From Bilabrum cf. latius (Eukaryota), in NCBI GenBank assembly GCA_965178125.1, contig OZ237737.1:1364001-1428000 (forward strand): a stretch of DNA of 64,000 bases, given 5' to 3'. A program made the position numbers and the translations under genes. The notes beneath the pieces were generated by a model. The model was not told the DNA's origin. It searched no databases and was given only the letters and a program-made list of their open reading frames with translations. Shown here one piece after another: positions 1 to 64,000 of this stretch; the first letter of the stretch is position 1, and each line of letters starts with the position of its first letter.

Positions 1-1944
1 CCGTTCCAGGAATGCTCCGTGCCCGGATGCAAGCTGCCTCGCTGCAATCTGCCTGGCTCAACTTACTGCGAGGGCCACCATGCCGTCCGATTCCAGGAGC
101 CCCCAACACTGGAGGACTTTTTGCGCAACGACGTGTACAGGTCAGTATTCCGTGAGTACTGCCAGTCGGCCCGCCCCGAGATGCAGGACGTGCTGGGCTT
201 CATGGAGAGAGCTAAGGACGTGTCACAGCTGCGGGCCAAGCATGTCCTCGCGGAGAGAGCGAGGGTGGTGTTCGACCAGTACGTGCGCGAAGGGGCTGAC
301 AAGCAGCTTTTCTTTTTATCCGACGTGGACCCGAGGGAGGGGTCGGGCAGGGGGGCCGCAGCGATCGGATCAAGGTCTCGGCTGGATTCGGCCAACACGG
401 TCGGCGGGGAGAGCACAGCGGACATGGCAAGGGAGGCAAGCGGCTTTTCTCTGCGGTCCGCGGGCGGCATCGAGGATTCGGTTCTCGTTCCGGGTGCAGG
501 AGGGGACTCCTGTGGAGAGGTTGCGCAGTCTGGCGTGTGCGCTCCTGCACTGCCATCGTCCCGAGTGACTGCAAGTGGAGAGGACGGCGAGGCCCCTGCG
601 GGGCTAGAGGCTCGAGCCAGAGGCGGATCTACCACAACCGCAGCAGAGGCGACACCGCCAGCAGGACCCGTTGTTGATGCCGGCGCTAGCGCACACGTTG
701 GCGCTGGGATGGGGCCCCTCTCTGTGCCGGGTCCCATGGCACCCAGCAACGGATTAACATCGGGAACTCTGCATGCTGGCTTGCAGCGATCTCGTGGCGG
801 CATGAATCTGCTGGCAGCAGCTCCCTCGTCGGAGTCGAAGGAGGACCCCACTGGCGGTGGCACCGAGTCGAAGCTGTTTCCGTCCGGTGCAGGCGCGCCT
901 CCGTCACCGACAGTGACAGATGCCCCGCCGACTAGCGAAGCCGGTGTTGCTCCTAGCAATGGGCACGCTTCCACAAGGGGTCCAGGCCAAGCGTCTCCGC
1001 CATCCGGATCACCACCCCGGATCCGCGGTGCCAGCGCCAGGGCCAGGGCTAGTGCCAGGGCTGGGGCGGGTGCCGGGGCGCTGGCTGCTGCAGCCTCGGC
1101 GGCGTCTCCGGGACGGGGGCCATCCTTGGCGCACCGGGCCGACTCCACGGCATCAACGCGGTCCAAACAAGGCGGTGGCGGTGACTTTGCCCGGTTCTGT
1201 GCCAGGCGAGATGCCGAGGAGTACGAGGCAACTCGCGTGAGGCTTGCGGGGATTTTGAGGTACCTGTACCGGGTGCTGAGCGACGATTTCGACGAGGAGG
1301 AATAGGAATAGGCGGGAGCTGCTGGAGCAGATGCTGTTCCTGCTGCCGGGGGTGATGGTGGCAGCGACGGCCCCGCCGCGAGTGGGGCTGGTGCAAGCAG
1401 TTCGTCCTTGCGCCCGCCGCCGTAGACGCGGAGGAAGGGCGCTGTCAGGTCCACAGTGTTTAAGGGCCTCGTTAGGGAGTGCAGGTGGCACCTGCACCGA
1501 GTGTTCGAGGGCGAGTTCAAGTTCAGCCAGCAGTACGCAGCGTGGGCTGACGTGAACCTCGGGCTGGAGGTGCCCGAGGTAACCGCTGGCCGCGCTGCCA
1601 TTCTGAAAGCCGCTGGGGTGTCTATCGGCGAGGCCATGGGGGTGAGGAGGGTTTCTTCGGGCGAAAATGGGGGTGCTGGACCCGCGTCTGGGTCTGGTGC
1701 AGGGACGGGTGCTGGGTCTGCGTCTGGGTCTGGGTCTTCTGCTGCAAGCACCATGTCATCGGAGGCTGGTGTTGGCGTTAGTAGGGCTGGAACCGGCATG
1801 TCACCGGTGTCCACGCCAGATTCAGAAGCGTACCAGGCTGGTTTGGAAGCGCTGGCAGCTAGCCCTGAAGACGAGAGCAGCGCCGGCGACGGGGCGTCCT
1901 CTGCGGCTGCGGGTGGCGCGGCTTCAGGTGGATTGAACATTTGA
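1..1944 (+). CDS. RGS-domain protein, 5'-truncated by the window; TAG read through at 1303, 1309 and 1423
   Basis: The frame is open from base 1. ORFs 19..1305 and 1456..1944 share a frame and are separated only by TAGs. The RGS N-half (LEDFLRNDVYRSVFREYC...LGFMER...ARVVFDQYVREGADKQL) and C-half (VFKGLVRECRWHLHRVFEGEFKFSQQY) are split by a low-complexity insert. It ends in TGA at 1942-1944. Confidence 0.7.
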
Positions 1945-2052
1945 ACTTGCACAAGACCGGCAGCTTTCGCAGTGCTTGCAGATTAGAATTCTTGCCAACA
2001 AGGGAGCAACCGCATCAATTACAAGCATCCCGGATACTTTTCTTGCCGCAGC

Positions 2053-3354
2053 TCACGAGAGAGCGTCCGGGCCACTGCCAGCCTCGTCGCTTTCCACTGG
2101 CAACGCGTCTAGCACCTCGATTCGCATGGACCACCGAAACTCTTCGCCCTGCTTCAGTAGAACCCTGCCATGACCCGTGTTGAGAGAGTCGGGCACCCCC
2201 AGCCACGGCTCCATGCAGATAAATCCTGGGCGGGGAGCAGCACCCGCATCGTCCGCAGTCGAGGCACGGCCGGCAGCTTCGAGTCCGTCGCCACTGCCAG
2301 GAGCGTCCGAGAGTGCGTCAGTGGAAGGAGGTGGCTGGCCCCACAGCACGAAGGTGTGCCACGGATCCAGCTGCGACACCTGTGCCGCTTCTGACGGTAG
2401 CAGAAGGCTGGATCCGTCCCTCTCCGAGACAGGGCCGCGCGCACCGCCGATCCACGAGGACACGCGGATGCCGGCGGGCCACTCTGCCTCTGCCTCCGCC
2501 CCCGCGTCGTCATCATCGCCTGTCTTGGCGGTTGAGACTCCCGGTTCGCCACTCCCAAAATTGAGCTCTAGCTATCGGGTACTATCAGGGGTGTGGGCAG
2601 ATTCCTTTCCGGACTGCTCGTTTGCGGAGCCGAGCACAGTGTCAAGGGCTCGCTCGTCGATGAGTTGCAGGCCCCCACCTGCAGAGGCCGCGGCCTTGCC
2701 ATCACTCGCCGTCCCTAGCTCTGGGATGCCCTTCACTTCACCTGATAGCAGGGATCCGGGTGCTAGGCACAGCATTTTGTACGCTTGGCCGCTTGGCGCA
2801 TGCAATTGCGCACCTTTCCAACGTGATGCGGGGACCGCTACGGATAGGTGGTTCCCGATCGAGAATGGCATCATGGTGGATTCGCCAGCCCGGTGGTTTG
2901 AATCGCCTGCATCTTTATTCTTCACAGTGTATTCGCAAACAATGCTGTTGCCCGACTCCAAAGCAAAACGAACCTGCAGCTCAAACTCGAATGGATACTG
3001 CATCTCCTTGCCATCTTCTACGCTACCACCCGAGCTTTCGATCGATAGATTAATATCATTTGTTGAAACTGCCTTCACTGCAAAATCAGCATCGTGGACA
3101 AACCCATGTAGTGGCATCTCCAAAGTACTTTCGCCAAGCTTCCATCGCGCGTCCTTGTGCCTGCCAACAGCAGGCCACAGCGTCATTGCTCTTCCTTGCC
3201 AGCCAGTTCCATCGTGGTTCGTTCCGAATTCACCGCCGTAAAGGATTTCATGACCCCGCCAAACGATGCTCGAAAGCTGCCCACCCTTCTTGATCACCCT
3301 GATCATGAGGCCATCCTTCTTGATCTCCAACTCCGGTCCCGCGGCACCTGCCAT
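2053..3354 (-). CDS. Aldose 1-epimerase / galactose mutarotase-like protein (LacX-like), ~433 aa; one internal TAG at 2572
   Basis: ATG at 3354. Motifs LWPAVGR, MPLHGF, YPFEF and FSIGNH lie before the TAG; the catalytic-Glu motif FICMEPW lies after it in the same frame. It ends in TGA. Confidence 0.8.
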
Positions 3355-3562
3355 CGACTTGCGACAAGCTGCAAATAGTGAGTAAGGCGTGAAGCTCTCT
3401 GAAAGAGTGCGCAAACCGATAACTTGTTTCTGCGCGATGAAGATGGATTCGACGGTTCCGGGCTGGATCGAAGTGACAACTGCAACCGCAGCTGTTGAGC
3501 CCTGCACTGTGATATGTAACAAAATTAAACGGTTCAAGGCATGAATTATAACATTTATTCGC

Positions 3563-5518
3563 TCAAGACGGAAAGTTAGCACCGTTCGTGCTGCCAGCAA
3601 CGCACCACGGGTGCTGCATTATTGTCGGGCCTTGCGCAACCACAGCCTCGACATACTCCCATTCGTTCGACACGTCGTTGAACTCTCGTCGAAATGCTTC
3701 TCCACAGGTAGGACACTCTGCTTCACCGCCAGTGGCATCAAAGTCTGCGCAAGAAACGCGGTGTGCACCCCCACCGTCGGACAGAGCACCCGGAGAGCCC
3801 GGACTGCCGGGGGTTGATGAGATGATCTGCTTTCCGGCTGTGGCGGCAGCGGGCTACAAGCCCGAGCCGGTACCCGAAGCAGAGGAAGACGAAGAAGAAG
3901 ACACCGCCGCTGCACTCGAACTGCTGCTTGATCCAGCAGCTGCCGCTGCTCCATTCGAAGCCGCTGCACCCGCGCCGGCAGCGACTGCCAAAGACGGCAC
4001 CGCGGCTGCAGCTCCCTATGCTCCAGTGCCGGTACCGGTGCCGGTGCCGCCGCTGCGGCTGCTTGCTGCGCCGTCCCAGGACCCTCTATCCCTTGCTACC
4101 TTCGCTGCACTCGTCAGCACGGTATCCCTGCGCGCCGTGTCATCGTCATCGTGCCCTACTCCTGCTCCTGCTCCTGCTGCTGCTGTTGCGCCCCAGCCCA
4201 GGGGACCGAGGAGGCACCACGCCCTGCTCCTCCCGCCCGCGCCCCCGCCCGCCCACTCGTCATCCAGCCGAGCCACCGCATGCCTCCGCCGCGCATGCGT
4301 GGCTACATCAGTTCCGGAGCGGAAAAAGCAACCGTCCGCCGCAGAAAACTCCAGGCCTTCTCCCGGAGGCCCCCTCAGGATAAGCTGCGCACAGCTCTCC
4401 TTGTCCTCCTCTACGCCCCGCCACCAGTGCAGACCCTGGGGTGCCGCGGCAGCAGCCTGCACCCCGGATGCAGACGCAGACGCATGCGCTGGAATAGGGC
4501 CAGCGGCTGGAAGCATGCTGGGGTGTCCCAGCTGCTCGGGCGCAGCGGGAACATGACTACCCTCGGCCATGCCTGCACCAGAGGCGGCTGCATCGGCCAG
4601 CATGCTGAGGACAACGGCCATGTCGCTCCCGGGCTCTGCCTGAGCCGCGGCTGCAGCTGCCGCCTGGGCCACTGCCAGCCCCGGCTGGCCGGCCCCTTGT
4701 TCCCCGGAGGCGGCGCCCAGCGCCTGCACGACTGCCTGGGACAGGAGCGGGTCCACTCGCGCCAGGGCCCGGGTCACGGCGAACACGTGCTGCTGCTGGA
4801 ATGGGGTGGAGCAAGCGGAGAGCGCAGACCGTGCCGCAGCAGCTGAAGGGCTGTCGCTGGGCCCGGCTCCCGCCTGGGAGGGAAGGGGGCCATCTGGGCC
4901 GGGCCAGTCGCCGGGATGCGTGCTGGGAAAGCCGTGTGCCTGCTCAACCCTAGCGCGTTTTGCCGGAGGCGCATCGAGCTCTGGACTGGAATGCTGGGCC
5001 CAGGGAGGCGGGTGCAACTGTGACTGAGCATCGCGGCCCGAAGCGGCGCTTGCCGGGATGGGTGCGCTAGGCACACCCGTGTGCGGTCCAGCAAGGCTGG
5101 AGTTTGGAGCGGTCGGAGCCAATGCATTCGATGCAATGCTTGCAAAATGATTCAAAAGCATGGATGTTACTGTTGGAAGTAAACTATTCGCTTGCCACAT
5201 CCGAACAACCCTCTCAATGTTGTATCTGTCCCCAGGAGAGGCCTGGTCGTACGCCATCACCAAAGTTTGACCAAGCCACCTATCGAGGCCACTCAAGAAA
5301 TGACCTCCAATATTTTTCACAATTGAGTCGATGAGATACACAATCGGAAGCCTGTGAGATGGCGGGGCCTCGCCCAGGCACTGCGCCACCGTGTATGCCG
5401 CATGGTCGGCCGAATCTGGAGCGTGAGAGAAGTACCCTGCGTGAGCCGTAAGTGGCTCAATGACTGCTCGAGCCGGGAATGTGCCCATACCACGGATCTA
5501 CGCTTGGAAGGCCTCCAT
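3563..5518 (-). CDS. PCF11: Pcf11-like pre-mRNA cleavage/polyadenylation factor (N-terminal CID, C-terminal zinc finger); TAGs at 5498, 4016 and 3854
   Basis: The CID motif is RLPIVYLIDSIVKNIGG...RVVRMW. Reading through two TAGs gives ECPTCGEAFRREFNDVSNEWEYVEAV...QHPWC, the Pcf11 C-terminal zinc-finger pattern. Start MEAFQA(TAG)IRG at 5518; TGA at 3563-3565. Confidence 0.75.
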
Positions 5519-5727
5519 AGGACGCAGAGTTTGCATGCGATTCCGTCATGGGGGATTACGGCACGGTACAAACAAAAATCCGATAAATGTCAGGCGCTCG
5601 GCTCCGCAGCAGCGCCTTGCTGATTCAGAGTGTTTCTGAGCGGTTTGCGTCCAACAGCAACCACAGCGCGCGATATATTTCTGCACAAAGCTAGCATACA
5701 CAGAAAATTCAACAGTTCCATTCGCAG
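5519..5727. promoter_or_regulatory. Putative bidirectional promoter region (Pcf11 / peroxidase fusion)
   Basis: A short, lower-GC spacer between divergent start codons; inferred from gene orientation only. Confidence 0.4.
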
Positions 5728-8700
5728 ATGCGGCTCGAAGTGCTCGCACTTGCGGCTGTGACTGTTGCGGGCGTTGGCACGCTGGCGCAGAGTGGTGTGT
5801 ATAGCTCCGTGGATGGCAGCCTTAACAACCCAATCGATGGGTTGCTCGGGAAAGAGGATACAAGATTTCTTCGGAAGCTCAACATGGCGTTCTACGACGA
5901 CAACGTTGCGTCGATAAACCCAGGCTTGCCGAATCCACGAGCTGTCTCCAATTCCTTGTTTGGGGTACCTCCGTTCAGCTACAACCAAGCAAGAGTGGCC
6001 TTTATGGCTGCGGCATGGGGTAAGAGAAAGCTTATTGCGAAGCCGGTTGCGTTTTCAGTGGAGTGTGTCCGCAGTACGTGGTTCGCTGCACCGAGTGTTC
6101 ACACCGCGTGCTCGTGCTGTTCCGTTCCCCTCCCATTTTGCAGGTCAGGTGAGCCGGCTCATATTCAAATTAATTTTTTTTGTTAATCACAAGTAGAAAA
6201 ACTGGCGTTTGTGTTGCCCGATCTTGCAGTCGTCGGCGCACATCACAGAGCTAGCCCGTTCCCAGGAGCCACCCGTCTCGCAGTTCATCGCCCATGACAT
6301 GATCAGGACAATGGGACACAACAGCAGCGATCCTACTGAAGTCATTCAAGTGCCATCACCTGCCGGGGAGACCCACTTTGATGGTCCGACGATCCCGTTC
6401 AAGCGCATGCTGTGAGAGCTTGCAAACGGATCGAATGGACGGTCGGTTCACGCCCAAGCCTATTGATGCCCGCCCTCAAAATTAAGTCATGCTGAGTTAA
6501 CATTGCAGGTATGATGCCACGACGGGAACCGGCCCGCTCAACCCGCGACAACCGATAAACAGGCAAACTTCTTTCATTGACGGAAGCGTAGTGTACGGAG
6601 CGACAACGCAAAGGCTCAGGGAGCTCCGTACATTTTACCGCGGCCAACTGATCCAGGATCCGGTAAACGGATGCCCACGGAACAGTGCTGGGGTACCCAT
6701 GGCTGGGCCTTTCGGAAACTCGCCGGACCAGCGCCTGACCGGTGACGACCGCGGCAACGTGAACCCCGGCATTCTCGCGCTGCAGTGCCTGTTCATTCTC
6801 GAGCACAACCGCCAAGCAGCGGAACTTGAAGAGCGCAACCCGTCGTGGTCCGACGAAGTGCTCTTCCAAGAAGCCCGCATCAGGGTGCGCGCCATCATCC
6901 AGTCCATCCACTTCAACGAGTACACGTCTCTGTTGCTGGGCGAGCCACTCCCGGCCTACCAGGGCTACAACCCCGGCGTCGACCCGTCCGTGGACGTTGC
7001 CTTCGCCGTGGCAGCCTACCGCTACGGCCACAGCGGCATCAATTCCGTCTACTGGTGCGTCAAACCGGACGGCTCCAACTGCCAGCAGGGTCACCTGCTG
7101 CTCCGGGACGTCTACTTCAAGCCGTCCTACCTCAACTTCGGGACCATCGGAGACATCCTTCGCGGCCTCACACTGCAGCCCGAGCAAGAAATCGATACTG
7201 TCATGGTGGACGACGTCCGCAACTGGGTCGAGGGTATCAAGCAGGACCTGGCCATGCTCGACATTATGCGGGGACGGGACGGAGGAATCGCCTCCTACTC
7301 CACTGCGAGGCAGCAGTACGGCCTATCGAGGCCGCAGCGGTTCGAAGACATCACCTCAAACCTGCGCGTGGCGGAGGCGCTGCGCGCAGCGTACTCATCT
7401 GTTGACGACGTGGATCTGTGGGTCGGAGGCCTCGCCGAGGAGGCCTCTGGGACCTCATTCGTGTCCGAGACGTTCAAGGCCGTGATCAAGGACCAGATGC
7501 TGCGATCTCGCGACGGTGACCGCTTCTACTACAAGAACCAGGAGGTTGGTGGCTTCCGCAACGGCCGCTTCGTGCGTTACCTCAGCGATGAGGAGATCGA
7601 AGAGATCGATGCGACCAAGCTCTCCGACGTCATCCGGCGGAACACGGACTTCACCAACGCTCCTTCCTCCGTGTTTAGGAAGCAGGACGAGGTGACGTTC
7701 ACCGGGCTGGAAGTCATGGCTGACGGCGAGACCACCCCTTCCACGCCAGTCGTCGTTGTGCCTGACAGCCCCACCGAGCGCGTGCTGCAGGTGGATGACC
7801 GACTCACCATGCGGTGGACGCCAGTGCAGGAGCAAGACACCGAGCTAGAGATCACGCTCGAGCTGGACGGCGAGGGATGGGTCGGTGCCGGCTTCGGCAC
7901 CAGGATGCGGGGCAGCGACGTCGTCATGCTCACCTACCAGAACGGCCGGGGCCAGGCCACCGATGCCAAAGCTACTGCATACGCGCTCCCAGAGTCTGAC
8001 CCGCAGCAGGACTGGAGAGTCACGAGCGCCTCCCAGTCAGCTGGTGTGACCACGTGGACGGTGGCCCGCGACCTGCTAACCATCGATGGCAACGACTACC
8101 AGCTGACATGGTCGGACGGTGGCAGCGTAGAGATGCTGTTCGCGTGGTCCACCACGGAGTCCACGGTGGGCTTCCACGGCAACTCGAGGACGGCACTGCG
8201 AGTACCGCTGTACGCCGAGACCAGCTCCTCCTCCTCTGGAAGCGGCGGGCAGTGCCCCACGTGCACCGTGTGCCCAAGCCCGGCCCCGACTGCCGCGGCT
8301 TCCACCGATGACGACGACGCCGCCACCAATTCCAACGATGCCTCGGGCCTCAACGGTAGCGATGGCGGCTCGTCCACGCCGGATGCCTCGGGCAACACCG
8401 TCACTCGTAACTCCCTGGTGATCCAGGAGGGCGTGCTCTCCATGGAGTGGGCACCACCGGGCGACTCCGACACTGATATTGAGATCACAATGACGCTCGA
8501 GGGAACCGGCTGGATGGCGTTCGGGGTGGGAACAGGCATGGCTAACGCTGACGTGTACATCATGTCGGTGGAGGGAGGCCAGGGTCAGCTCACCGATGCG
8601 ATCTCAACCGGATACATGGTGCCAGCCACGGACGGGCAGCAGGACGGCGAGATTGTCACAGCAACTGAGGTGGACGGAGTGACCACGTTCACGTTCCGCA

Positions 8701-11420
8701 GGGCCCTAGACACCGGTGATGGCGACGACATTGCCATCGGAACGGGCGACACGCCCCTGATTTTTGCCTGGGACACAAGGTCTGATGTAGTGGCACCCCA
8801 CGGGCCCAATAGGGTGATGGCCTCCGTGGATCTCTTTGAGAAGCCGAGTGGAAACGGAACCTCCACTGCGAGAGTTGTGGGTGGAGGAGGAAACGCATAC
8901 CGCAACGCCAGGCTAGCAGCGTATGGCTTCCATGGCATCAGCATGTTCTCGACATGGGGCGTCCTGGTCCCGATCGGAGTGTTCACGGTGCGCTTCTTCC
9001 GGCACAAGTCCTTCTACCAGCAGTTCCACCGGTGGTCCATGATGATGGCAGCGACGATTACCATTCCTGCCGCTGGTGCTGCGATTGCCGCTAGCCAAAA
9101 CTAGAACATCCTGCTGCATGCCTACTTTGGAGTCACCTTGGCGGTGTCCATCATCATCCAGGTGGTGCTGGGAGCGGCGACCCGTAACTGGCTGCGCTCG
9201 GACAAGAGGCCGCCGAACGAGTTCTTCTACGTGATGATGGCCCACAGAGTCCTCGGGTGGCTGCTGTCTGGACTGGGCATGATCAACGTGTACCTCGGCG
9301 TGTCAATGCTGCTGCCCGAAGCCAAGTACTTCATCCTGGGGTACCTCGTGCTCATCTGCGTGGCCTACGCGGTGGTCGGTGTCTACGACGAGCTTATGCG
9401 GGATTCGGTGGCAACTCCGGTGTCCATGATCAAGGGCAAGAACAACGCAACTCTAAAGAGGGAATTCATCGCGCACAGCAACCAATCGATGACCATGGAA
9501 GACGTTCGGCGGAACGTGCGCGCGGGCTGCAAGTTCGTGATCCTTGAAGGATGGGTCTTTGACGTTTCCAAGTTCGTCAAGAACCACCCGGGCGGGGCGT
9601 ACCTCATCGAGAGGTGCGTGGGCTCGGACATCCATCAGTACTTCTACGGCCGGGAGGCCTTCGACCAGCGTGTGGGCAAGCACGTGCACAGCATCAGGGC
9701 CCGGGAGCTGCTGCGCAGCCTGTGCGTCGGTGTGCTGCGAGCCGGTGCAGCTTCCAGTGGCTCTGCCGGCACGTGGGCCGACAAAACGGTGGAAGACAAC
9801 AACCAATGGGAGAACTGGACCGTCCAGAGGGCCCACATTGTCAACCCAAGAGAGAAACGCCCTGTTGTTCACCTGGCCCTGCACCGCCAGGGTGCGAACG
9901 CCACAGAGCCGCACGAGTGGAAGCCGTCCACATTCGGTCGGTACATGCTCGTCCGTATTCCCAAGCCCGACTCCAGTCGCTCTACTAGTGAGGAGTTCAA
10001 GTCGGCCCTGCGGACCAGCATCTCGGGAGATGCGCCAAGGGGTGGCGAGCACAGGTACGCCATCCGGCCGTACACCATCGTTCGTCGAGCTGGCAGGCCA
10101 GGTATGGAGCTCTATATCCGCCGGTACGAGGGCGGCGAGCTCTCACCTCTCATGCACAACCTGCGAGACGGAGATCGGCTAGATATGTCGGGCCCGCGCG
10201 GACTCGGCCTCCATCTCGATGACGACAGCTCGGGAGTGGTGGTGGGCGTGGCCCTCGGCACGTGCGCATACACCTACTATGACCTGATCCAGTACGTCAT
10301 GGCCAAGTACGAATACGAGGAGTCCAACGGTCAGAAGCTGCAGCGGAACGACAGCTACATTTCTCGCGGATCGATCCAGCGCTCGGCCTCGAAGCGAACG
10401 ATGGGTCTCGGGCCTGACGTCACCCACTTTCGGACTCCAGACGACTCCCGCCGGTCCTCCTTCCAAGACGCGAAACAACTTGGCATGGCTGGGTCGGCAA
10501 GGACTTCGAACCCAGACCCGGCAGCTCGGGACTCTATCGGTCGCAGGGGTACCGGAGCCGGCTTCGCAGCCTCGAAGCACGGGGAGGATTCGAGCAGTGG
10601 AGGGAGCGGCAGCGATCGCGGCGACGTGTCTGACAACGTCCAGGAGGGCCCACGACGCAGCACTCCTGGATAGAGGCACCGCCGGCCATCCTCGTCTGAT
10701 GATGACCTACTGGAGGCCCTCGAAGACGCAGGCCTAGATAGAGGTGAGCACAAGGCGCAAGACTCGACGCGCGTCCCTGTTCAGCTGCCTGCTCTGCGCA
10801 CTGCGTCTGCGCGAGGCGATTCAGATGCGAGCAGAACGATTGATATCGGCGGGATGCACATCACGACTGCAAAGCACATCAAGATCCGAGGCGGAAACGT
10901 CATCAAGGACGCAGCGGCACAAGGCCGCTCCAGCAGGGACATGCATGACGAGGAAGAAGAGGTCGACATGGACGCGGCAAAGCGATACCTGAAGTCGAAG
11001 AGGCTCGGCAAGAAGCCGTCTCGCGCAGTTACGCAAGCGGATGAGGAGGATACTGACCAGGAGTCGCAGCCGTCAAGCCGTACCAAGCGGAAGCACTTCA
11101 ATGACCTCAAGCTCGTCTTGATGGTCGTCTTCGGCAGCGAGGACGAGGTGCTGGAGGCAGATTGGCTGCTGCACGCCGCCGAGACGTGCCCCTACTTTGA
11201 GCTGCACATCAACATCAAGAAGAAGCGCCGGGCGGAGCACCCTCTGCATCGGTACGAGAACCTGTACACGGGGTACCTCGATGAAGAGCGGCTGGCGCTC
11301 ATCCTGCCCCCGCGCAATCTGCTGACCGTGACGCTCTGCGGAAGCAGTCAGTTCGTCAGGGGGCTGAAGGACAAGTACCTCGCAATGGGGATGCCACGTG
11401 GCCTTGTTTCGGCAACCTGA
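5728..11420 (+). CDS. Multidomain membrane redox protein: signal peptide, animal-type heme peroxidase, 2x DOMON, cytochrome b561, cytochrome b5, FNR-like FAD/NAD(P) domain; ~1,778 aa. Exons 5728-6019, 6144-6148, 6284-6411, 6509-11420; TAGs at 9102 and 10671
   Basis: Splicing gives WGQFIAHD, NPRQPINRQTSFIDGSVVYG, GDDRGN, AYRYGHS (proximal His), DIMRGRDGG and SRDGDRFYY. Both DOMONs have Met/His heme ligands. The b561 domain has four His (FHG, FHR, LHA, AHR), the b5 domain has HPGG, and the FNR domain has RPYT, GELS, GPRG and LCGS. Exon lengths sum to 5337 nt, a multiple of 3. It ends in TGA. Confidence 0.85.
6020..6143 (+). other. Spliceosomal intron 1 of the peroxidase fusion gene (124 nt)
   Basis: GTAAG donor after TGG-G; pyrimidine tract and TTTTGCAG acceptor. 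Confidence 0.8.
6144..6148 (+). other. 5-nt micro-exon (GTCAG) completing Gly and encoding Gln of WGQFIAHD
   Basis: Flanked by TTTTGCAG and GTGAG. Including it restores both the frame and the family motif exactly. Confidence 0.75.
6149..6283 (+). other. Spliceosomal intron 2 of the peroxidase fusion gene (135 nt)
   Basis: GTGAG donor, AT-rich interior, and a CTCGCAG acceptor directly before TTC ATC GCC CAT GAC (FIAHD). Confidence 0.75.
6412..6508 (+). other. Spliceosomal intron 3 of the peroxidase fusion gene (97 nt)
   Basis: GTGAG donor and TTGCAG acceptor. Splicing joins IPFKRM-L-YDATTGTGPLNPRQ in frame. Confidence 0.8.
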
Positions 11421-11501
11421 TGTTGTGATGACTCTGGCCTATTTGACAATTATACCTTTACTTGCTTACTAGTCCGTATCACCGTGCAAATCTTAACAAA
11501 A

Positions 11502-14500: not shown

Positions 14501-14984
14501 TCATCATGCAAAGCCATCTTTCCGGCAGAGACTCTTCATTTACGCTAGCAACTGCAGGTACAGAACGCCACTTGCCACATCTAGAGCACTCAACCCAGCT
14601 TGCTACAGTGCCTGGCTGCTACAAGACACTGACTTCAGCAGATTTACTTTTTGCAGACTTGTTTGGGAGCCTACCGCTTCCAACAGGCTCTGCTAAAGGG
14701 GTCTCACCAGCAAGTGCTGCAGAGGCCTTGCTGGCTGCTACCCGGCGCTTCTTCTTTGGGGTAGGAAGGCCGCTCTACAACGGAACACTAGAAGCTTTAA
14801 TCGGCTCAGGGGCGTTTCCTGACTGTGTTGTGTCGCTCGGTTCCTCTGGGGCGTCGCAGCTCGCATACTGTTGCGCCCACGAATTCATGTCACAGGTCCA
14901 ATGTTCTGGGAGTTCGTCTGGATTCATACCGGTTGCAAGTTTCCTCCATTTCCCGCAGAGTTCACAAGCAACCCAATCCGACAT
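11502..14984 (-). CDS. Protein with two N-terminal CW-type zinc fingers (putative methyl-H3K4 reader), ~1,160 aa; 8 internal TAGs
   Basis: Five track ORFs (14775, 13536, 12828, 11964, 11502) share one frame with only TAGs between them (14775, 14619, 14451, 14286, 13536, 12828, 12711, 11964). CW1 is WVACELCGKWR...WTCDMNSW...SC. CW2, absent from the ORF track, is WVECSRCGKWR...LPERWLCMMNWW...SC. It ends in TGA. Confidence 0.75.
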
Positions 14985-15082
14985 GGCGAGCAGAACGGTG
15001 CAGACGGCGTGGGGTCTGCTGATGATGCGCATTCGCGCAGTGCAACTTTTGACGTCGCGTCAGGTTGAAACACAACATTGCC
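14985..15082. promoter_or_regulatory. Putative bidirectional promoter region (CW-finger gene / MYST gene)
   Basis: Only 98 bp separate the divergent ATGs. Confidence 0.45.
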
Positions 15083-16677: not shown

Positions 16678-16727
16678 TCCGCTTGTCTGCACCCACCACA
16701 ATGCACTGCATTGCCCGCACCTGCAAT

Positions 16728-53700: not shown

Positions 53701-56700
53701 TGGTTCCGGGGCCTGGTGCTCGCAGCGCTCAAGGCCGACCCTGTCCCGAAGTCCTCTCCGAAGATCGACAAGCTTCGCAGCCTGTGTCAGAGCATCACGT
53801 TTGCGGTGTTCAAAGGTGTCACTGTCGGGCTTCTGAATGCCCACCGGTTCCCGTTCCTGCTTCTTCTCATGCTGCGGATCCTGCAGTCTGAAGGGCATGC
53901 AACCGAGAAAGAGGTGCTGTTCCTGTTGTCTGGCCAGGTGGGATCCTCGGGTGCGCAGCCACCGAACCCAGCAAGAGAAGACGTTGACTGGGCAGACGAC
54001 GATGGCGTATCTAGTGGTGACTTTGGGGAGGAAGAGGATGAAGACGACGGGATCGGCATCACGGCTTCAGCATCGAGAGCTGACATGGAGGTTCCCGGCA
54101 ATGCTGGCGGGACCGGTGCTCTGTGGATGAGCGATCAGAGCTGGGGGAACCTGGTTGGACTTGGCAACATCAAGTCCATGGCTGGCATACACCGTTTCCT
54201 AGCTTTCGGCGAGAAGTCAGATAAGGAGCCTCCGGTGGCCGCGATGCGAGGCACATCCCTCGGTGCCAGCTAGGTTCGTGCTAGCAGGATGAATTCCACC
54301 GGTCCAATGCGGCAATCAAGTCGATTGGGGGCTCAAAGTGGTGGAGGTGCCGCGAGTCGTAGCGATACAGAGAATCCTGATCAGGAGCAGCGGCTGTAGG
54401 CGCTGAAGCAGCTGAGGCGGGTGATGCTTGCTGACGATCCCGCGGCGCAGCTGCAGATGCTCTTGTCTGGCAGGGCTAGCAACACGGACGAGGTGGATGA
54501 AGATGGAGATGCAATCGGTGCCCTGCCGAACGTGTTTCCTGGAGCAACCGGCCGGAAGAAACTCGGTGCTGCTGGAAGTGAGGCCGGCAGCACGCCTGCA
54601 TCACAGGTAGGCCATGGAGGACGTTCGAGACGAGCCAGCGCGAACAAAGGGCTGTGGGCTCCAGGTGGAGCCAGCGGCTCGCGCACCCCGGGGCGTGGGT
54701 CCATGTTCGGTGGCTCTGTGTCCGGCCGTAGCTCTGTAAGAGGGGGTGGCGCTGCCGCCAGCGTCACCGGCTCTGGTGGCCGCAGCGTAGCTGGAAGCGC
54801 TGCTGCTGGTGGTCCCGGCGCGATCGACCTACGCGCAGAGAGACTTGCCAGCATGCCCACGTCGCTCGGTGGTCAGCGTCAAGTGATTGGACCGCTGTCA
54901 ACTCTGCAAGCCTCCAAGGCAAGGGTGATCGCGGCAGAGTCACGAGGCGACGCCTACAAGAAGCAGATGGCGGCGCAGCTGCAGCAGCCGCCGTCGCGAG
55001 AGAGCACTGGGTCTGGGTCTGCCCAGGCTGACGGTGGCACCGAGCTAATGTCTCCTACGCCCATGAGCCGCATGGACACTCAGCCCATTACACCGCAGAT
55101 CGCGACTGCCCGAGTCCCGATGCCCCCAGCGAAGCGCTGGTCCAAGCTGACTGCCTTCCAACACCTCATGTTGCTTCGCAGCTTGCGGCCCGACAAGTTC
55201 ATCAGCGCCGCGAGGGAGTTTGTAGCGTGCCACTTGGGGCCCGAATACCTGGAGCCCGTGCGGCTGGACATGAACGAGGCGTACCAGGACACTTCGTGTG
55301 AGACGCCGCTGGTCTTCCTTCTGGCTCCTGGCTCGGATCCGGTGCTGGAAATCCTCAACCTGGCGGACGCCCAGTCCATGAGGAGACGAACGCACATTGT
55401 GTCGCTGGGCAAGGGTCAGGGTCCCGCTGCTTCGCTCAGGATCCAGCTGGCAATGGCCAAGGGCGACTGGGTGGTGCTGCAGAACTGTCACCTGGCTCGA
55501 TCGTGGCTGCACCAGCTGGATCGAATCGTGGCGGGTCTCTCCACCGACACGGCAGCACGAGACTTCCGGCTGTTTTTGACCTCTGCGCCCTCTCCGACCT
55601 TCCCGCTCTCGGTGTTGCGAAGGTCGATCAAGGTGGTCAACGAGCCGGCGGGAGGGGTGGCAGCGTCCGTCTCACGAGCCCTCGCCCAGCTCGACTCGGA
55701 ATGGTTCGAGCAGGCAGCCCAGCCGCGCTCCTTCCAGCGACTACTTCTCTCGCTCTGCTTCTTCCATGCGGCGCTCCTTGGCAGAAGGAGGTACGGGCCG
55801 CTCGGTTTCGCAGTCACGTATGACTTCAGCGACTCTGACCTCGGCATTTCGATTGCTCAGCTCCGGCACCTTCTCGACGACGCCGCATCACCCCAGGCCC
55901 TCAAGGCGGTCAGAGAGGCAAAATAGAGAGCGTCTGCGATGAAAGCATCACAGGGCGCAGCCTCGCAGTCCATGTCGATCAGCAGCGCGAGAAAGATGAC
56001 CAAGTCAGAGGCTGAAGCCAAGGCGAAGGCCGAGAGGGAGCTCCTGGATAGCCAGCCAGAGTCCGTCCCGTTTGAGGCTCTGCGATACCTGATCGGACAC
56101 TGCTACTACGGCGGCAGGGTAACGGACAATCGTGATCGGCGCACGCTGTTGGCCATGCTGCGAGTCTGCATGCACGACGGCATCGTGCATAGCACATCCG
56201 AAGAGGACGAGCACGCGGCGTAGGAGCTGAGGGAGGGCTCTGGCCCCACCAGCCTGCGACTGTGCGAGAGTGGTGCGTACAGGCTGCCCGTGCTGCCCTC
56301 TGACCACCGGACCCTGCACGGCTACCGACGGTACGTGGAGATGGTGATGCCCAACGAAGACGAGCCGGAGACGTTCGGGCTTCACGCGAACGCTGCAGCT
56401 GCCCAGGCCACCGCAGAGGCCCACGACGTGCTCCACACTCTGCTGAGCCTCGAGCACCAGGACGCATCGCAGGCAGCGTCTGCGGCAGCGGCGGCCGCGG
56501 CTACCGGTCAGGCTTCTCAAGCAGAGCATGCAACTGCGGGCGACGATGGCGGGCCTACCGGAATGGCTGGTATCGGTGGCAGCGCGCATCAGCTGGGCGG
56601 TGGCGCCGGTGGCGGAGACGGCAACTCGCCAATGGCCATCTCGGACCCGAGCCGCGGTGGTGCCGACTATGAGGTCCGGCGCCTCGTGCAGCTGATCAAG

Positions 56701-58179
56701 GCCCAGCGCAACACGCACCAGATGCCGCTCGTCAGGGAGGTCAGAGCCATCCTGTTTAGGCTGCCCGTGGACCCTTGCTTCGACTTGGAGCTGACCGAAG
56801 CGAGGTATCCGAGGTCTTACGACAAGTCGCTCAACGTCGTGCTCCTGCAAGAAATCGCAAGGTACAATGGGCTTGTCTACGAAGTGCGCAAGCAGCTTGT
56901 AGGGCTGTTGGAAGCGCTCGCGGGTCAGGTCGTAATGAGCGCAGAGCTGGAGAGCGTGGCAGCAGCCTTGAGCCAGGGTGCGGTGCCACAGGGCTGGCGC
57001 GATGTCTGTTACGTGTTTGCGAGCCGGACTCCGCTCGCAGCGTGGATTGACGACCTTGCAGCCCGCCTGCGCTTCTTCCGACGGTGGATCCGGTGGGGCC
57101 CGCCGCCTAGCTTCTGGCTTGGGTCCTTCTTCTCGCCGCACAGCTTCTTGACGGCCGTGACGCAGAAGCACTCCAGGCGGATCGGGGTGCCCATTGATGA
57201 GCTGCAGCTTAGCTGCGCCGTTCTCACGGCGGAGCCCCCGTCGATGCTTGTGGAGCTAGACGATGCTGCGGTGCGCCGGCAGCGCGAAGCCGCAGCTGCT
57301 GCCCGACAGGCTGCCACTGAGGCTCGCGGCTTGGACGCGACCAGCGAGACCGTGGTGGGAGTCGATGCAGCAGGCGAGGACGCGGGGCTGGGGCTTACTT
57401 CTCTCGAGGTCGAGCCTGGAAGCGAGCTGGATGCGGCCTCCCGGAAGCCTTCGGCGCGGCGTCATGGAGGCTGGCTTCCTGAAGGTGAGTTGGAGCCGCC
57501 AACCGCCGGCGTGTACGTGCACGGGCTGGTGCTAGAGGGCGCGGCCTGGGACAGGGTGGAGCGGGTGCTTTGCGAGCAGCGGCCGGGTCAGCTGTACGAC
57601 CAGATGCCGATGCTGTGGCTGCGCCCAAGGGTGAGTGCATCCCTCCAGCGTGCGGTGAACGGGAGACTGAGCCGCGTCAGCGGCAGTGGTGCCGGCGAGG
57701 GATTCCGTCCGTCATCAAACGAGAGCCACCGCAGCGCAGGTGCAGGTGCTGGTGCACAAGACCCTGAGAGCAGGCTCGAGGGAGACGGAGATGCTTCTGC
57801 CGTGGGTCCCGGGGGCGTGTCTGCCAAGGACGCTCTCCTGGGTCCTGACGATCCGGGCTTTATGTGTCCCGTGTACTTGACCACGGACCGGCGCGGCGCG
57901 CTGAGCACGACGGGCCATTCCACGAATTTCCTGGCAGAGGTTACGCTGCCTGCGACCCCGCTCGTTCCGGGGGAGTTCGGGTTCGAGCAGCTGGCCCCTA
58001 GGGCGCCGCGCAGCAGCGGGGGAGCCGGTGCGCGCGGGTCTGTTCGCGCAGGTGGGGCGCATCTTCGCGGGATCGTGCCGGATCTGAGCGAGTCCGAGAG
58101 GACGAAGCTTGGGCTGCAGGCCGCGGCCGAGCACTGGCAGAGAAGAGGGGCGGCCTTGGTGTGCCATCGAGCCACTTGA
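32779..58179 (+). CDS. Axonemal dynein heavy chain, single-headed inner-arm type, unusually large (~8,466 aa), apparently intronless; ~54 internal TAGs
   Basis: About 30 track ORFs lie in one frame, and the gaps I read contain only TAG. It has a DNAH1-like tail (LPLEQFDD...PWEW; WVRRLNLRF...YIQSLP), linker LEKKRLAFPRFFFL, AAA1 GPAGTGKT (44188), CFDEFNRI, AAA2 GEAMSGKT (45427), AAA3 GPTGTGKT (48160), AAA4 GLDGSGRR (49603), stalk/MTBD, WVVLQNCHLA, YGGRVTD and STTGHSTNF...HWQRRGAALVC. It ends TGA TGA. Confidence 0.9.
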
Positions 58180-58389
58180 TGAACTGTAGAAGTGTGCTCT
58201 TGTAACAAATTGATATTTAGCATTCGCTACTGCGACCACAACGCACGCCAGCGGCTGGCCAACCCGAAAAAAAATCATTCGGAATTCAATTAATCACCAA
58301 CGGACCCAAAATCATTCGCTGTTTACCAGACATACAACTTTTCTTGTATTCGATGCTAGCTTGTGTTTTCGCTTAATTTTGTTACCGAA

Positions 58390-61300
58390 ATGGAAGCTCG
58401 TCGCGCCGCATCGATTGTCGTCGCCGCGTTTCAGGGACATGCGATAAGGCTACATGTCCTGGAGGCGCTTCGAAATGTCGAGATGGCAAAGCATTGGGAG
58501 ATAGCGAAGGCATTCCTTTTATATTGTGAAATTCAAGCAATTCGCTTGCCCCACGGACCTGCGGCAAATCCCGATGCTCCAGAACAAGCAGGGCAGATGA
58601 CTTCAAGCGAGGACCTTGGCACGCGATATAGCGAAGCAGCAATATGCCGTCGAGTGGCTACTCAGCAGACTGCTACGAGGCAAAAGCTTGAGGCAAGTGC
58701 GGTCAGCCCTCAGCTTGCGCGTTTGGATGACGTGTGTCCCCTTGATCGAGTCAGGGTTGACGATGAATCTAATGTGGTCTTGTCGAGCTTGCGATCGTCT
58801 GCGGTTCGTAACATGCTGGCATTGCGTTAGTGCGCTTTCATTGGTACGTCATTCTCTCGCCTTGGCGCACGCGTCGAGCGCTTGCTTCCTGAACTTGCCC
58901 GCATGACGCTCGGCGGGTTCATCTTGTTTTGCGTGGATTGTGGAATACTTGACGAGCACAGACCGTTCCGCTTCATCTATGGCGTGTTCAAGAGTGCCAT
59001 TGAACACTAGTATGCCGCATGCAAATAGCGCCTGCGGCGGTCCCGCTTGCAAGGGGCTGCCAGGAAGGCGCGCCGCTTGTCGATTGATCTGCGGGAGCGC
59101 CAGCGCCTAGAAAGGGAGGCCGAGGACAAGCACCGCAACCTGCCACCCAGCATACGAGCACAGCTGTCATCACAATAGGCTATTCACATCACGAATACAA
59201 CACATTCTGCTTCTAGCAGGAGCCAAGCCGCTAGCAAGCCAATGTCAACAGCAGGTGTCGAAGATGATGGATTACCACGGGGAGGTGCTGCCGCTGCCGC
59301 TGCAGATATTCAGGATGGCACCCCGAGGGCGCGGGTCCCCTTCGGCGGAGCAACTCCCTCGCTAGCTGTTAGTGCAGAAGGAGATGCAGGCAGTTCGCGG
59401 GAACATGAGAACGAGGATCAAGAAGAAGGCCATTCTGCAGAGTAGGTGCCACCACACGAGGTACCATCCGCAGCAAGCCTGAAGCAGCTCCTGCACCCCT
59501 GGTCGCCTGATGAAGAAACTGAGCAAGAGGCTTTGAATGTACCTCTTTGGCGGCGGACACTCACCCAGGACGGCTTCGAGGTGGCCCTGAGGAGGCTGAG
59601 CGACGCGTACGTTTTGGAGAGCTACGGGGCTAGGAAGAACGCAGCTCCACGCGGGGGGGATGCCGGCAGCGGGCCGGCTACCAGTGGCTTAGTCGGTTTG
59701 CTGAAGAGCACATCTAGCGCCGCCGGATCGAGTGGATCGAAAAGGGTCGGCCGCGCCAATATACTGCAAGCACTTGCGAAGCGAAGCGATGCTGGGCCGG
59801 GTCTCTCACAAGACTCGAAAAGCTTCAGTGAAGCTGAGGCCAAGACGAAAAAGCGCCGGGGATCTGTTGCCAGTATGGTACACAAGTCAGCCGCAGATGC
59901 AGAACAAGCAGCCCTGGTTGGTGCTGCGACAGCTGCTGTCGTGTCTGGCGATCATAGCGAGGGCCAGCGCAGACTCAATCTGCTGCTTGGTACTTCAGAC
60001 CAACACTCTCGTCCGCGCCCTATGGCACTAGGGCATCCACAAAGGTCGTTGGGATCGGGAATTGTCGCAAATTTCGGCGGTACTGGCCTTTCTAGACTTC
60101 GGGCGGCGGCGCACAGGGTACATCCCCAGGCTGTGATGATCTCGGATCAGGCCAGACTGAAGCTCTTCCTCTGTCACATTGTGTGGCCGTGTGCGTAGAG
60201 ACGATACGAAGCGTAGGGAGGCTGTTTACTGTGGGACACAGCGTTATCACGCCTTACACCGGATGCTGGAGCGAGGCTACGTCGCATGCAGCTCGCCAGG
60301 CTGCCTAGGCACCTTCTTGATGGTTTGAAACGGGACTCGCCTAAGCAGCGTCGGTCTAGCGAGAACTCCAGGCAGGATCCTGACAAAGCCAAGTGTGGAC
60401 CGAGTAAGACTAATCGTGCCAAAGCTGAGGACGCGGTCTCCCTCCAGCAGGTTGGGGTGAGGGTTATTTTGAAGCCAGCCACCTCCTCGAAAGCGAGAGC
60501 GAGTGCAGGTCAGCCTTCCAAATTGATGAAATCCTCTTCGGCGTCAGCAAGTGTAGAAGAAGTGATCGTCCGCCAGGCAATCGATGGAACGATCTCCCGT
60601 GTTGGCCAGGGAGCGCTCGGTCGGAGACGAGATAGATCAAGCTCGCCCAAGAGGGCGAACCTCGGTGATGCAAAGATCGGGGCCAAAGAGCCTACTGCCA
60701 CGAATGGGCTGCCAAGAGGGCCGTTCGAGTGCGTCGATTCAGTCAATTCAGTATCCGCCGCAAAAGGTGGCACTCCACCTGCCCCGGGTTCAGATTTTGA
60801 CAGGGTCCGGGTGCTGTCAGACAGCAGGATGGCTGCACTCCTTGTCGCTAGCGAGCACGACTACGCTGCCTTGTTCCAACGATATGCTCGGCCTGTTCCA
60901 AAACAAGTGAAGATGCTGGCTCGACCGCGGCGCTGGTTTCATCGCGGCTCTGCACTGCTTGTGCCTCCCGAACCGGATGCTGATGAAGCTACATCAAGCG
61001 GGTCCGGACCTGGCAACGTGCAGCAGCGGCGGCGAGCCATTATGCGGTAGCGGTAGGCGTCTCGCTTCTCTGCGCTTAGCGATGCTTTGCGGCGCGTAGA
61101 CTTGGTGATAGGAGCAAAGTCTGGGTTTCTCCTGCCGGGTGGATCGATCGGATCGCTGTCGCATGACAAGCCAGGCAGCCGATCCCGCTCCAAGACGACA
61201 CGCCCCTAGTCGCTGCCTGAGGTTGCTGCAAATCAAGCATTTTTCAAGTAGCAGAAACCAATGCTTCGAATGCAGTACGCAGATTTTTTGCGGGCGATCG

Positions 61301-64000
61301 TTGAAACAGGTGTATTGCCTCTCCAGTACCGAGCCAAGAAAGAAGCGTTCACCGTCTTGCTCCGGATCTTCCTCGGGTATTTTCCTCTGCAGCCGCTTTA
61401 GATGTCGGCGTAGTATGCTGCCGAACTTTCAGTGGTACAGGTAACGCTTGAGGATGAATTTGGAGACGCGTACAGGGCATTCCTGGCATCGCTTGAGAGA
61501 GCAGAGGCTCGAGAGAGGGAGCGCGTCGAGGACTACAAGCGCCGGAGTGCATTGTTTGGCAGGGATGTCGCAGCAGTCGTCACCAAGAGCAGCTCAGACA
61601 CTGGTTCCGCGGTGCCGCTCCGGGATAGGCTGCGCCGCGCGGTCGTTGCTGTCACGGTGACCAACAGAATCAGGCGGTTTGCTAGTCTGACTGCACGACC
61701 ACAGGCGTCCGGTGCAGTCTCAGGGTACCGTAGCAGGCGTGGAAGCGTAGAAATCCGACGATTGAGCCATGAACAGGCCGCTGAGCTCCATGACGTTGCG
61801 ATTGAACGAGACAGAGAGGGCCACATGGGCGAGGCCCAGGCTGGCGACCAGCTTGCCGACCAGAATCCCGCCGTATCCGACAAACGAGCCTTCGGAGGAC
61901 TGCATGCCACCTTGCTTGGAAGCTCACCCGAAGGCACAAATCAGTTGGCTGGCCAGCGGTTCAAAACTGAGTTCTCTCCGGCTGCTGATGACGGGAATAC
62001 CACAAGTGGGAATTAGTCTGGCGACCGAGTCGGCCCGGGGTTTCGAATCGGATCGAGCGCCCGCAAGCCTGAGTACCTTCTTTCGGCAAGCATGCAGCTG
62101 AAATCGAAGGCAGCTGGGGATGCTCGAAGTGCACTTCAGAAATTCCTCGGTGGAAAGCACCACAAAGGTGCTGCCAGACCGGCTGGAGCTAGCAAGTCTG
62201 CACGGGCCCCAGATGCAGCAGCAGTACCATCAGTGTAGTCGTTCTTTGACCGAGGAGAGCGTGAGGCCGTAGAGCGCCTCTGGAAGAAGCAGAAGAAGGA
62301 GATCATGGGCAAGCAAGAGGCAAAGATACTTGGAGCGCAGTACTCTACCGACATGCAAGCGCAGACCGGGCTGGACATCGCACGAATCGCAAGAATGCAG
62401 GCCCTCGCGCAGCAAAGGGACGCAGCTGAGTCTACATGGATGGCCTTGCGAGGTCGCGGAGGTGGACACCGACGAGCAAGCCCTCGTGCTGCTAGCTACA
62501 ACGCGAAAGGTTTCTCAGCGCTGTTGGCTGCCTCAAGTGCAGCCAGCGGCAGGATTCCTGGCGCCTTGCTCAGGCTCCAAGCCAGACGTGAGCAAGTTGA
62601 TCGGAGTGCTCTCCTGGGCACTGAGCTGCGCAAGAGACTCTTGCAGTATTTTCATGAACGAGCTGCATGGCTTCCTCCAATTGTAGATGCTCGTAGATAG
62701 AAGATTCGCAGAGACAAAGCCAACGACATCAGCCTTGTTGCAGATCGCGTATCTTTGCCATTGCTACCAATGCATCGCCTTCAGATGGTCCTTCTTCGTG
62801 CTGGAGTGCGCACATCATCCTCTGAGCTTCGCATGGTCGTTGAGGACAGTGGTTTAGATCCGTCTTGGCTCGATGGTCCGAGCGGTAGTGTATCCAGCTC
62901 ACGTTTCTCGAGGGCATCAAATTTGGCAAGGAGTCCCAGGGGCGGCGGTGAGCCCGACGAGCTGGCTGGGAGATCGATGGACCCCATTGAAAAGGCCGAA
63001 CTGGATACCATTCGATCCAGGGGATGGTATGCTAAAAAAGAGGCTAGGCTATCGGAAGAAGTAGCTCACAGCTCCCATGGGTCGGATCAGCAGCAGCTAG
63101 TCGGGATGCTAACTGCTAGCATGATGTTGTTGGTCGCCTCCAGGGCAAAGCACCTACGCTCTCGATTGGACAGAGCTCTTATGTCGGAAGCCCAGTTCGT
63201 TTGCGCCTGCCAGCACATAGGAGTCCATGGTTTGGTTGACGTTGACCGATAGAAGCGGCGAGAGCGTGCTCGGTAGAACTTCAGGAATGCGATGAAGAGG
63301 GTCCGTCTGCTGCTTGGAAACATTGATGCGCTTTCAAACTTGCTGGATAGATCGCCGCCCCCGCCCGACGCTGAGGTATCTTGCTGGCGCCTGGTCTTGT
63401 CCATCATGTTGTAGAGGTGCTATGCTGGAATGGCGTGCCTGTTTGACCCGGCAGTAGTCCGCCGACTTGGTCAGTCCGTCCCTTCGTTATGCAAGCGCTC
63501 CGAGTCAGCGAACCCGGCCGGGTTTTACCGCCACGAACGAAGAGCTCAGGACGTGACTGGCGTCGGTATAGTTCCGATGTCGGCTGTTCTCATTTGGCTG
63601 CGACACGCCAAACTGCAAAGCGTGAGTTCTTCCAGCGGGTCAAGGGTATGGACACGAGAGAATGTCGTCAGGCAGGCGAAGCATATCATGTCTGCTCGCT
63701 TTGGCGATCCTGGGCAGGCGCACTAGCCTGGCGGGCCAGGAGCGAGACCCACTGGCAGTGGCAGACCGACGCTCCGATTCGAAGTGGAGCTTGGCGGATT
63801 CGGGTTAGACATGTCAACTTCATTCGTTCCTTTCTCAGTTTTCCGCCACTTGATTGTGCGTCTGATCACAGATGAGTACGTGAAAGACCATGGATAGCGG
63901 GAACGCTTCCTGTTTCACGGTCGAGGACCTGTACCGCAGCCAATGAAGTGCTTGCTCGTATCGCTGCCGTGCCCTCCACTGTCTATGGTGCTCTGCGCCC
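58390..64000 (+). CDS. Large hypothetical protein (>1,860 aa), 3'-truncated by the window; ~21 internal TAGs
   Basis: ORFs 58363, 59242, 59446, 60286, 61432, 62305, 62755 and 63430 share one frame. There is no TAA or TGA in frame from ATG 58390 to the window end, and an AT-rich intergenic region precedes it. I recognise no family. Confidence 0.7.

Follow-up and report, generated by a model that had tools for sequence, protein, structure and literature searches.

A stretch of 64,000 nucleotides deposited as Bilabrum cf. latius (GenBank assembly GCA_965178125.1, contig OZ237737.1, positions 1,364,001 to 1,428,000 of the forward strand), which in its full length is referred to here as the window, contains long open reading frames (ORFs) that run through in-frame TAG codons and through no other stop codon. 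We consider it very probable that the window stems from the nucleus of a GC-rich, Cafeteria-related stramenopile in which UAG is an ordinary glutamine (Gln, Q) codon and not a stop. The pattern is that of NCBI genetic code table 15, in which UAG alone is reassigned, to Gln, and UGA ends every complete gene in the window. An earlier note on this DNA had proposed that TAG is a sense codon and that it most likely specifies Gln, and both parts of that proposal are borne out by the codon counts and the protein comparisons described below.

TAG Is a Sense Codon in the Window

The G+C content of the window is 61%. With TAG read as sense, the window contains 11 long ORFs distributed over both strands, and the stop-to-stop ORFs obtained by reading through TAG extend to 8,468, 3,648, 1,902 (open at the 3′ side), 1,639, and 1,185 codons. 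The standard code cuts these same ORFs into pieces of at most 867 codons. Comparisons with Pfam and the PDB indicate that the ORFs are conserved genes, with matches to dynein, peroxidase, MYST, epimerase, CID, zf-CW, and M8 peptidase families. When counting starts at the first ATG of each ORF, the 11 ORFs together hold 20,237 codons, with 125 TAG, 0 TAA, and 0 TGA in frame, and every one of the 10 complete ORFs terminates in TGA. TAG is a sense codon in the window, and UAA is not a sense codon in the window genes. In four reading frames with little coding content, TGA occupies 297–390 of approximately 21,333 codon positions, compared with 120 in the main coding frame, and frames of this length are therefore not open by chance.

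The earlier note had counted about 127 TAGs by hand, close to the 125 found after the first ATG, and had described 10 of 11 genes as interrupted by TAG. By likely coding sequence (CDS) the number is 9 of 11, with no TAG in the MYST and FAD/amine-oxidase-like genes. Its observation that TAG occurs on both strands stands, as the minus-strand epimerase, CID, and zf-CW genes carry 1, 3, and 8 TAG codons, respectively. Its statement that the MYST core follows a TAG does not stand, because the stop-to-stop frame of the MYST ORF opens with its sole TAG, 44 codons ahead of the first ATG. Three ORFs (MYST, ABHD, and an unknown ORF) have a TAG just 5′ of their first ATG, and TAA bounds four ORFs on their upstream side, within non-coding DNA.

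Counted together with the 606 CAG and 178 CAA codons, the 125 TAG codons make up approximately 14% (125/909) of Gln-type codons, and the TAG/CAG ratio is 0.21, compared with a TTG/CTG ratio of 0.35. If TAA stood to CAA as TAG stands to CAG, approximately 37 in-frame TAA codons would be expected among the 20,237 codons in which none is observed.

Distant Homologues Point to Glutamine

The residue at TAG was compared in two genes, the axonemal dynein heavy chain (32773..58179, +) and the alpha/beta hydrolase (28057..29976, +). Nineteen dynein heavy chains and 150 hydrolase relatives were aligned to the window proteins with an X placed at each TAG, and the residues found in the homologues at these columns argue firmly that Gln is the residue that fits TAG. 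In dynein, Q is present in 14/19 homologues at TAG 42454..42456 (+) within the motif DIQR[TAG]MPQE, in 12/19 at TAG 42613..42615 (+) within LDEI[TAG]KNL, and in 17/19 at TAG 48403..48405 (+) within GA[TAG]PPLELLRQW. In the hydrolase, TAG 28282 (+) falls within GHL[TAG]S, where 52/107 homologues carry Q. These motifs are conserved and free of gaps, and the TAGs lie within them. The earlier note had singled out these four sites together with 45379, 46000, and 48271; all seven are in-frame TAGs, and its recognition of Gln motifs holds at the first four. The motif it had seen at 48271 does not, since that column is variable, with Q in 2/19 homologues, and the remaining TAG columns are variable as well.

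A column-likelihood calculation over the 13 usable TAG columns placed Q first, by 8.75 nats over the next residue, 9.45 nats over Glu (E), and 11.61 nats over Leu (L), and the result was unchanged at other thresholds. Glu and Leu are the residues that the earlier note had named as possible competitors, and the alignments favor Gln over both. As a control, 2,000 sets of 13 columns were drawn for each amino acid at codons of the window itself. The margin of 8.75 nats was reached by Q in 0/2,000 resamples for each of the 19 other residues, and resampled E columns gave a Q call in 0.95% of 2,000 draws. For Gln codons of the window, the call was Q in 90.5% of resamples and the margin was reached in 21%.

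Close Relatives Carry Glutamine at TAG Sites and Appear to Share the Code

Databases contain short ORF fragments of close relatives, 50 to 261 residues long, that look as if they had been cut at TAG by a standard-code gene caller. A Logan set of fragments is 96–98% identical to the window dynein and a JGI/ENA set approximately 65–93% identical, and fragments of the hydrolase range from 63 to 90% identity. In high-scoring segment pairs (HSPs) of at least 78% identity, a window TAG is paired with Q in 7/8 cases, or at 5/6 distinct sites, and the seven Q pairings fall at 45379 (twice), 46000, 46153 (twice), 47791, and 47941. Within the same identity range, CAG is paired with Q in 31/33 cases and CAA in 19/22, and non-Gln residues are paired with Q at a rate of at most 5% (1.1% of 92 for E, 0/128 for L).

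The individual fragments illustrate this agreement. TAG 45379 is matched by Q in P0291 (96% identity) and in P0294 and P0304 (about 80%). TAG 46000 is matched by Q in P0295 (80% identity), and the fragments P0291, P0294, and P0304 terminate exactly at this position. Q is found at TAG 46153..46155 (+) in P0295 and P0299. At TAG 47791..47793 (+), P0292 and P0303 (97% identity) have Q and P0296 (65%) has Leu, and at TAG 47941..47943 (+) the same two fragments (97% identity) again have Q and P0296 (65%) has His. P0303 and P0304 are cluster members that show this pattern again and are not independent.

The ends of the fragments carry a second signal. Ten fragments have a C-terminus aligned inside the searched dynein stretch, and six of these end directly before a window TAG (46000 twice, 46828, 47044, and 48271 twice), while three end before a window CAG or CAA (46207, 46261, and 46750). 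Inspection by eye shows that the hydrolase fragment P0142 likewise terminates at a window TAG, at 29089. The relatives' gene callers therefore hit a stop where the window has TAG or a Gln codon. Such a two-way exchange of TAG with CAG or CAA is what synonymous change among Gln codons would predict, and together with the pairings it indicates that the relatives share the UAG reassignment. The share of TAG among Gln-type codons, the TAG/CAG ratio, and the presence of shared sites at about 80% identity suggest that the reassignment is old and common to a clade.

A metagenome scan for the DNA of the relatives' dynein was dominated by a conserved dynein motif, and the 80 loci listed average at most 53% identity to the window dynein. 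Among these 80 loci, 40 have in-frame stops in their tblastn matches, and these stops are mostly TAA together with TAG at low GC content, a ciliate-like pattern. A few loci look different: L049 (GC 0.55) has 8 TAG, 0 TAA, and 0 TGA, L029 has 15 TAG and 2 TAA, and L027 and L055 were flagged alongside them. These four loci may come from further organisms in which the reassignment is biased toward UAG or confined to it.

The TAG Codons Are Reproduced in Contigs from Three Studies

A 9.9-kilobase (kb) part of the dynein gene is present in sequencing runs of several studies, five of which (X8 to X12) have a small share, and none of the runs is recorded as RNA. Contigs of four runs (X1, X5, X6, and X7) were compared with the window over positions 40001–60000, and across these 20 kb no differing letters and no insertions or deletions were found, TAGs included, in contigs of runs from three studies. 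The earlier note had allowed that the TAGs might be artefacts of assembly or base calling, and this agreement speaks against it. The contigs differ in kind. X1 is represented by one 70 kb contig that may be the source of the window itself, X5, from another study, by a 14.6 kb contig, and X6 and X7 by many short contigs. No intron-like joints were found over 40001–60000 in the contigs of the four runs; the four joints that were listed, with short sides of 22–36 letters, resemble other dynein genes.

In X5, X6, and X7, contigs end close to gene borders and depth varies from one gene to the next, whereas the depth of X1 is flat. Our guess is that the X5, X6, and X7 contigs are transcript assemblies in which UAG is unchanged, and we do not count this as evidence. 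Near 42915 the contigs of X5 and X7 are interrupted and have loose ends on each side, whereas X1 is continuous there; the copy in that organism may contain a repeat or differ in structure at this point.

Opposing Observations and Alternative Explanations

Several observations weigh against reading UAG as an ordinary Gln codon. The eighth pairing at high identity, in an HSP of 90%, is a Lys (K) at site 29068. In HSPs of 60–78% identity, TAG is paired with Q in 0/6 cases (His twice, Leu, Val, Glu, and Asp), compared with 12/17 for CAG; our reading is that many TAGs may sit at weakly constrained, fast-changing sites, in what is a small sample. Two columns are at odds with Gln in the distant dynein homologues, with E in 15 and D in 4 of 19 at TAG 46000..46002 (+) and I in 5, L in 2, and S in 1 of 8 at TAG 45379..45381 (+). 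The earlier note had called these two sites less diagnostic, and the relatives at about 80–96% identity carry Q at both. One of the ten fragment ends, at 46957, stands before a window CGA. No gene ends in TAA among the 10 complete ORFs, so that use of TAA as a stop is not seen, and ARAGORN and Rfam found no tRNA of any kind in the window, nor did any RNA family turn up, so that the decoding tRNA is likewise not seen there. The eRF1 gene is absent from the window as well. Finally, the decoding of UAG is inferred from comparison only, and so is the identity of the relatives' ORF-end stops as TAG.

The most serious of the alternatives, although an unlikely one, is that UAG has a dual role and is read as Gln within genes but as a stop in some contexts, for example near the 3′ end. 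Context-dependent stop/sense codes of this kind are found in Condylostoma and in karyorelict ciliates. With 10 gene ends observed, rare TAG stops might have escaped notice, and the TAGs that closely precede the first ATG of three ORFs show that the codon is common outside CDS. However, TGA closes all 10 complete ORFs, not one of which requires a TAG stop. Nor does the G+C profile of the dynein ORF contain the AT-rich, intergenic-like dip that would mark two genes fused across a TAG: the lowest 300-base value within the ORF is 0.54, compared with 0.39–0.60 in intergenic stretches, and G+C at third codon positions (GC3) gives too weak a signal to decide whether a gene border is hidden there. Considerably less likely is a standard code combined with U-to-C RNA editing, which would convert UAG to CAG in the mRNA and yield Gln without a change in decoding. 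Editing would produce the same Gln signal in all protein comparisons, but it should also repair TAA (to CAA) and TGA (to CGA), and neither is seen in frame beside the 125 TAGs, although approximately 37 TAA would be expected. The X5, X6, and X7 contigs also keep TAG, the RNA nature of these contigs being a guess. We know of no nuclear U-to-C editing at such a scale.

That UAG encodes a residue other than Gln, for example Glu or Leu, has a still smaller chance of being correct. UAG is read as Glu in Blastocrithidia and in peritrichs, and such a reading would suit the column at 46000, where all 19 distant homologues have E or D, as well as the column at 45379, where 7/8 have I or L, and the absence of TAG–Q pairings (0/6) in the HSPs of 60–78% identity. 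The likelihood margins over E and L stand against it, E columns never having reached the margin in the control, as do the pairings at 78% identity or more, where E and L are almost never matched by Q (1.1% of 92 and 0/128) and TAG is in 7/8 cases, and the Q carried by close relatives at both odd columns. Least credible of all, to the point that we give it hardly any weight, is that the TAGs are untranslated and reflect assembly or base-calling errors, pseudogenes, or introns. Short introns do occur in this genome, and the earlier note had listed spliced-out TAGs among the findings that would overturn its proposal. The TAGs lie within gap-free conserved motifs, however, while the visible intron stretches hold the other stop codons; contigs of runs from three studies agree with the sequence letter for letter; and a single stop type of the three is involved, in 9 genes and on both strands, within frames that stay open for thousands of codons, unlike introns or decaying genes. 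Recoding of the pyrrolysine or selenocysteine type was considered and rejected, as Q, and neither K nor C, stands in the columns and the number of sites is too high.

If UAG is an ordinary Gln codon in this organism, its decoding can be sketched by analogy with other lineages that use the same code. A tRNA-Gln with anticodon CUA, one base removed from tRNA-Gln(CUG), would read UAG, and eRF1 would have lost recognition of UAG while keeping that of UGA and probably that of UAA. In this GC-rich genome UGA ends nearly all genes, so that few would have relied on UAG as a stop, and its capture would have come at little cost.

Placement of the Organism

The best named match of the MYST protein is to Cafeteria roenbergensis, with 61% identity over 92% of the query, followed by unnamed sequences, oomycetes, and labyrinthulids. 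A quick maximum-likelihood tree was determined from 37 rows taken from the 120 matches listed (named matches and the top unnamed ones). In this tree the window falls into an 11-row clade with Cafeteria and unnamed sequences, supported by a Shimodaira–Hasegawa-like approximate likelihood ratio test (SH-aLRT) value of 95 and set apart from labyrinthulids, oomycetes, and ochrophytes. The interior of the clade is not resolved and a sister relation to Cafeteria was not recovered. For one row of the clade, the source gives the label Symbiodinium. We take a Cafeteria-like stramenopile as a lead for the organism, one that comes from a single gene and no 18S. The earlier note had suggested a possibly bicosoecid-like flagellate, and this suggestion fits the MYST match and the clade.

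Gene Content of the Window

At the 5′ side of the window, an ORF with a weak Pfam match to RGS and an open 5′ end (1..1944, +) carries 3 TAGs and terminates in TGA. A stop-free antisense frame of 639 codons (63–1982, −) overlaps it; Pfam gives no match for this frame, which appears to be a side effect of low-complexity coding sequence rich in GC. The two ORFs that follow lie on the minus strand, are assigned by Pfam to an aldose 1-epimerase (2053..3618, −; 1 TAG) and a CID-domain protein (3563..5545, −; 3 TAG), and both terminate in TGA.

The fourth gene (5587..11420, +), identified by Pfam and PDB comparison, encodes a fusion of haem peroxidase, DOMON, cytochrome b5, and FAD-binding domains and has 2 TAGs in its long exon (9102 and 10671). 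The PDB matches cover the peroxidase domain, residues 2–399, and the TAG at codon 867 lies outside them. The earlier note had described the genes as continuous in frame, which this gene contradicts, as it is spread over three frames by short GT..AG-like introns. Its N-terminal part is interrupted between about 6020 and 6509: positions 1–77 of the Pfam peroxidase profile lie in the frame of ORF 5587–6186, the piece QFIAHDM lies in a different frame, and profile positions 141–529 begin at 6501. GT..AG-like borders are visible near 6020, 6229, 6414, and 6509, the exact splice sites being approximate, and a 5-base micro-exon near 6144 is one possibility. Judging from the layout of this gene, the genome has spliceosomal introns. 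The other ten ORFs look intron-free.

Further along, a zf-CW domain protein identified by Pfam (11502..15059, −) carries 8 TAGs and terminates in TGA, and the MYST histone acetyltransferase (15439..16677, +), also a Pfam assignment, has 0 TAG in its CDS. A giant ORF with a leishmanolysin-like (Peptidase_M8) domain (16950..27896, +) carries 27 TAGs and terminates in TGA, and the aligned part of its leishmanolysin domain in the PDB alignment covers no TAG. The alpha/beta hydrolase, which is ABHD1/3-like by homologue comparison, has 6 TAGs after its ATG and terminates in TGA; no Pfam family was found for it at E ≤ 0.001, and its homologue P0145 is labelled alpha/beta-fold hydrolase by its source. 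An FAD/amine-oxidase-like gene identified by Pfam (30111..32519, −) has 0 TAG and terminates in TGA.

The dynein heavy chain is the largest gene in the window, with a frame of 8,468 codons that contains 54 TAG and 0 TAA or TGA and that terminates in TGA. Its best PDB matches are single-headed inner-arm axonemal dynein heavy chains, with scores up to 1725 bits. The ORF is approximately twice the usual length: the first 2,900 or so codons (32773–41470) have no match in the 19 dynein homologues, and the motor contains many inserts rich in Ala, Gly, Ser, and Arg. The last ORF (58294..63999, +), of a family that was not recognized, leaves the window at its 3′ side and carries 22 TAGs, 21 of them after the first ATG.

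Relation to Known Genetic Codes and Implications

Reassignment of UAG alone to Gln has been reported in the fornicate Iotanema spirale, in Protocruzia tuzeti, and in two phyllopharyngean ciliate lineages, according to the parts of the sources consulted (PMC11687900; PMC5304391). As in those systems, UAG alone is reassigned in the window, to Gln, while UAA has no sense meaning and UGA is a stop. The window differs in its host, which appears to be a GC-rich (61%), Cafeteria-related stramenopile rather than a fornicate or a ciliate, and in that use of UAA as a stop is not seen in it. The more widespread code in which both UAA and UAG (UAR) specify Gln (NCBI table 6) is listed for many ciliates, ulvophycean green algae, Hexamita, Streblomastix, and Amoeboaphelidium in the consulted part of PMC11687900. 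These codes and that of the window have in common the capture of a stop for Gln, presumably through a mutated tRNA-Gln anticodon. In table 6 codes, however, UAA and UAG change jointly, whereas the window has no TAA in its coding frames, and the same difference separates the window from the ciliate-like metagenome dynein loci, in which TAA and TAG are both in frame. The consulted text of that source also gives UAG as Leu in an uncultured rhizarian and some phyllopharyngeans, as Ser in Scotinosphaera, and as Glu in the ciliate PL0344 (PMC11687900). As in the window, UAG is uncoupled from UAA in these systems, but the residue that fits the window is Gln instead.

The word stramenopiles occurs 0 times in PMC11687900. 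A search of the full-text literature, with most subscription journals and supplements outside its scope, turned up no case of UAG being reassigned in the nucleus of a stramenopile or bicosoecid, in agreement with the earlier note, which knew of no report in this group. Literature matches for Cafileria, Blastocystis, and Cepedea concern organelle genomes, as far as their titles and the starts of their abstracts indicate. The code variant itself is thus already known, and what appears to be new is the lineage that carries it. We hold with moderate confidence that the window represents the first nuclear stop codon reassignment in stramenopiles and an independent origin of a UAG-only Gln code in free-living, GC-rich, Cafeteria-like flagellates with a UGA-dominated genome, shared by at least two further lineages (at 96–98% and about 65–93% dynein identity) and seen across the data of several studies.

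Standard-code gene callers fragment the genes of this organism, and the relatives' database entries are such fragments. Table 15 is therefore needed for annotation, phylogenomics, and metagenome binning of the lineage. Changes to nuclear codes are rare, and the handful that affect UAG without UAA are recorded for a fornicate, a rhizarian, a green alga, and some ciliates in the consulted part of one survey (PMC11687900). A stramenopile case would add an independent origin in a large and well-studied supergroup and would provide a GC-rich counter-example for theories of stop codon capture. If true, it would support loss of UAG as a stop under GC and UGA bias, rather than AT pressure, as a route to codon capture.

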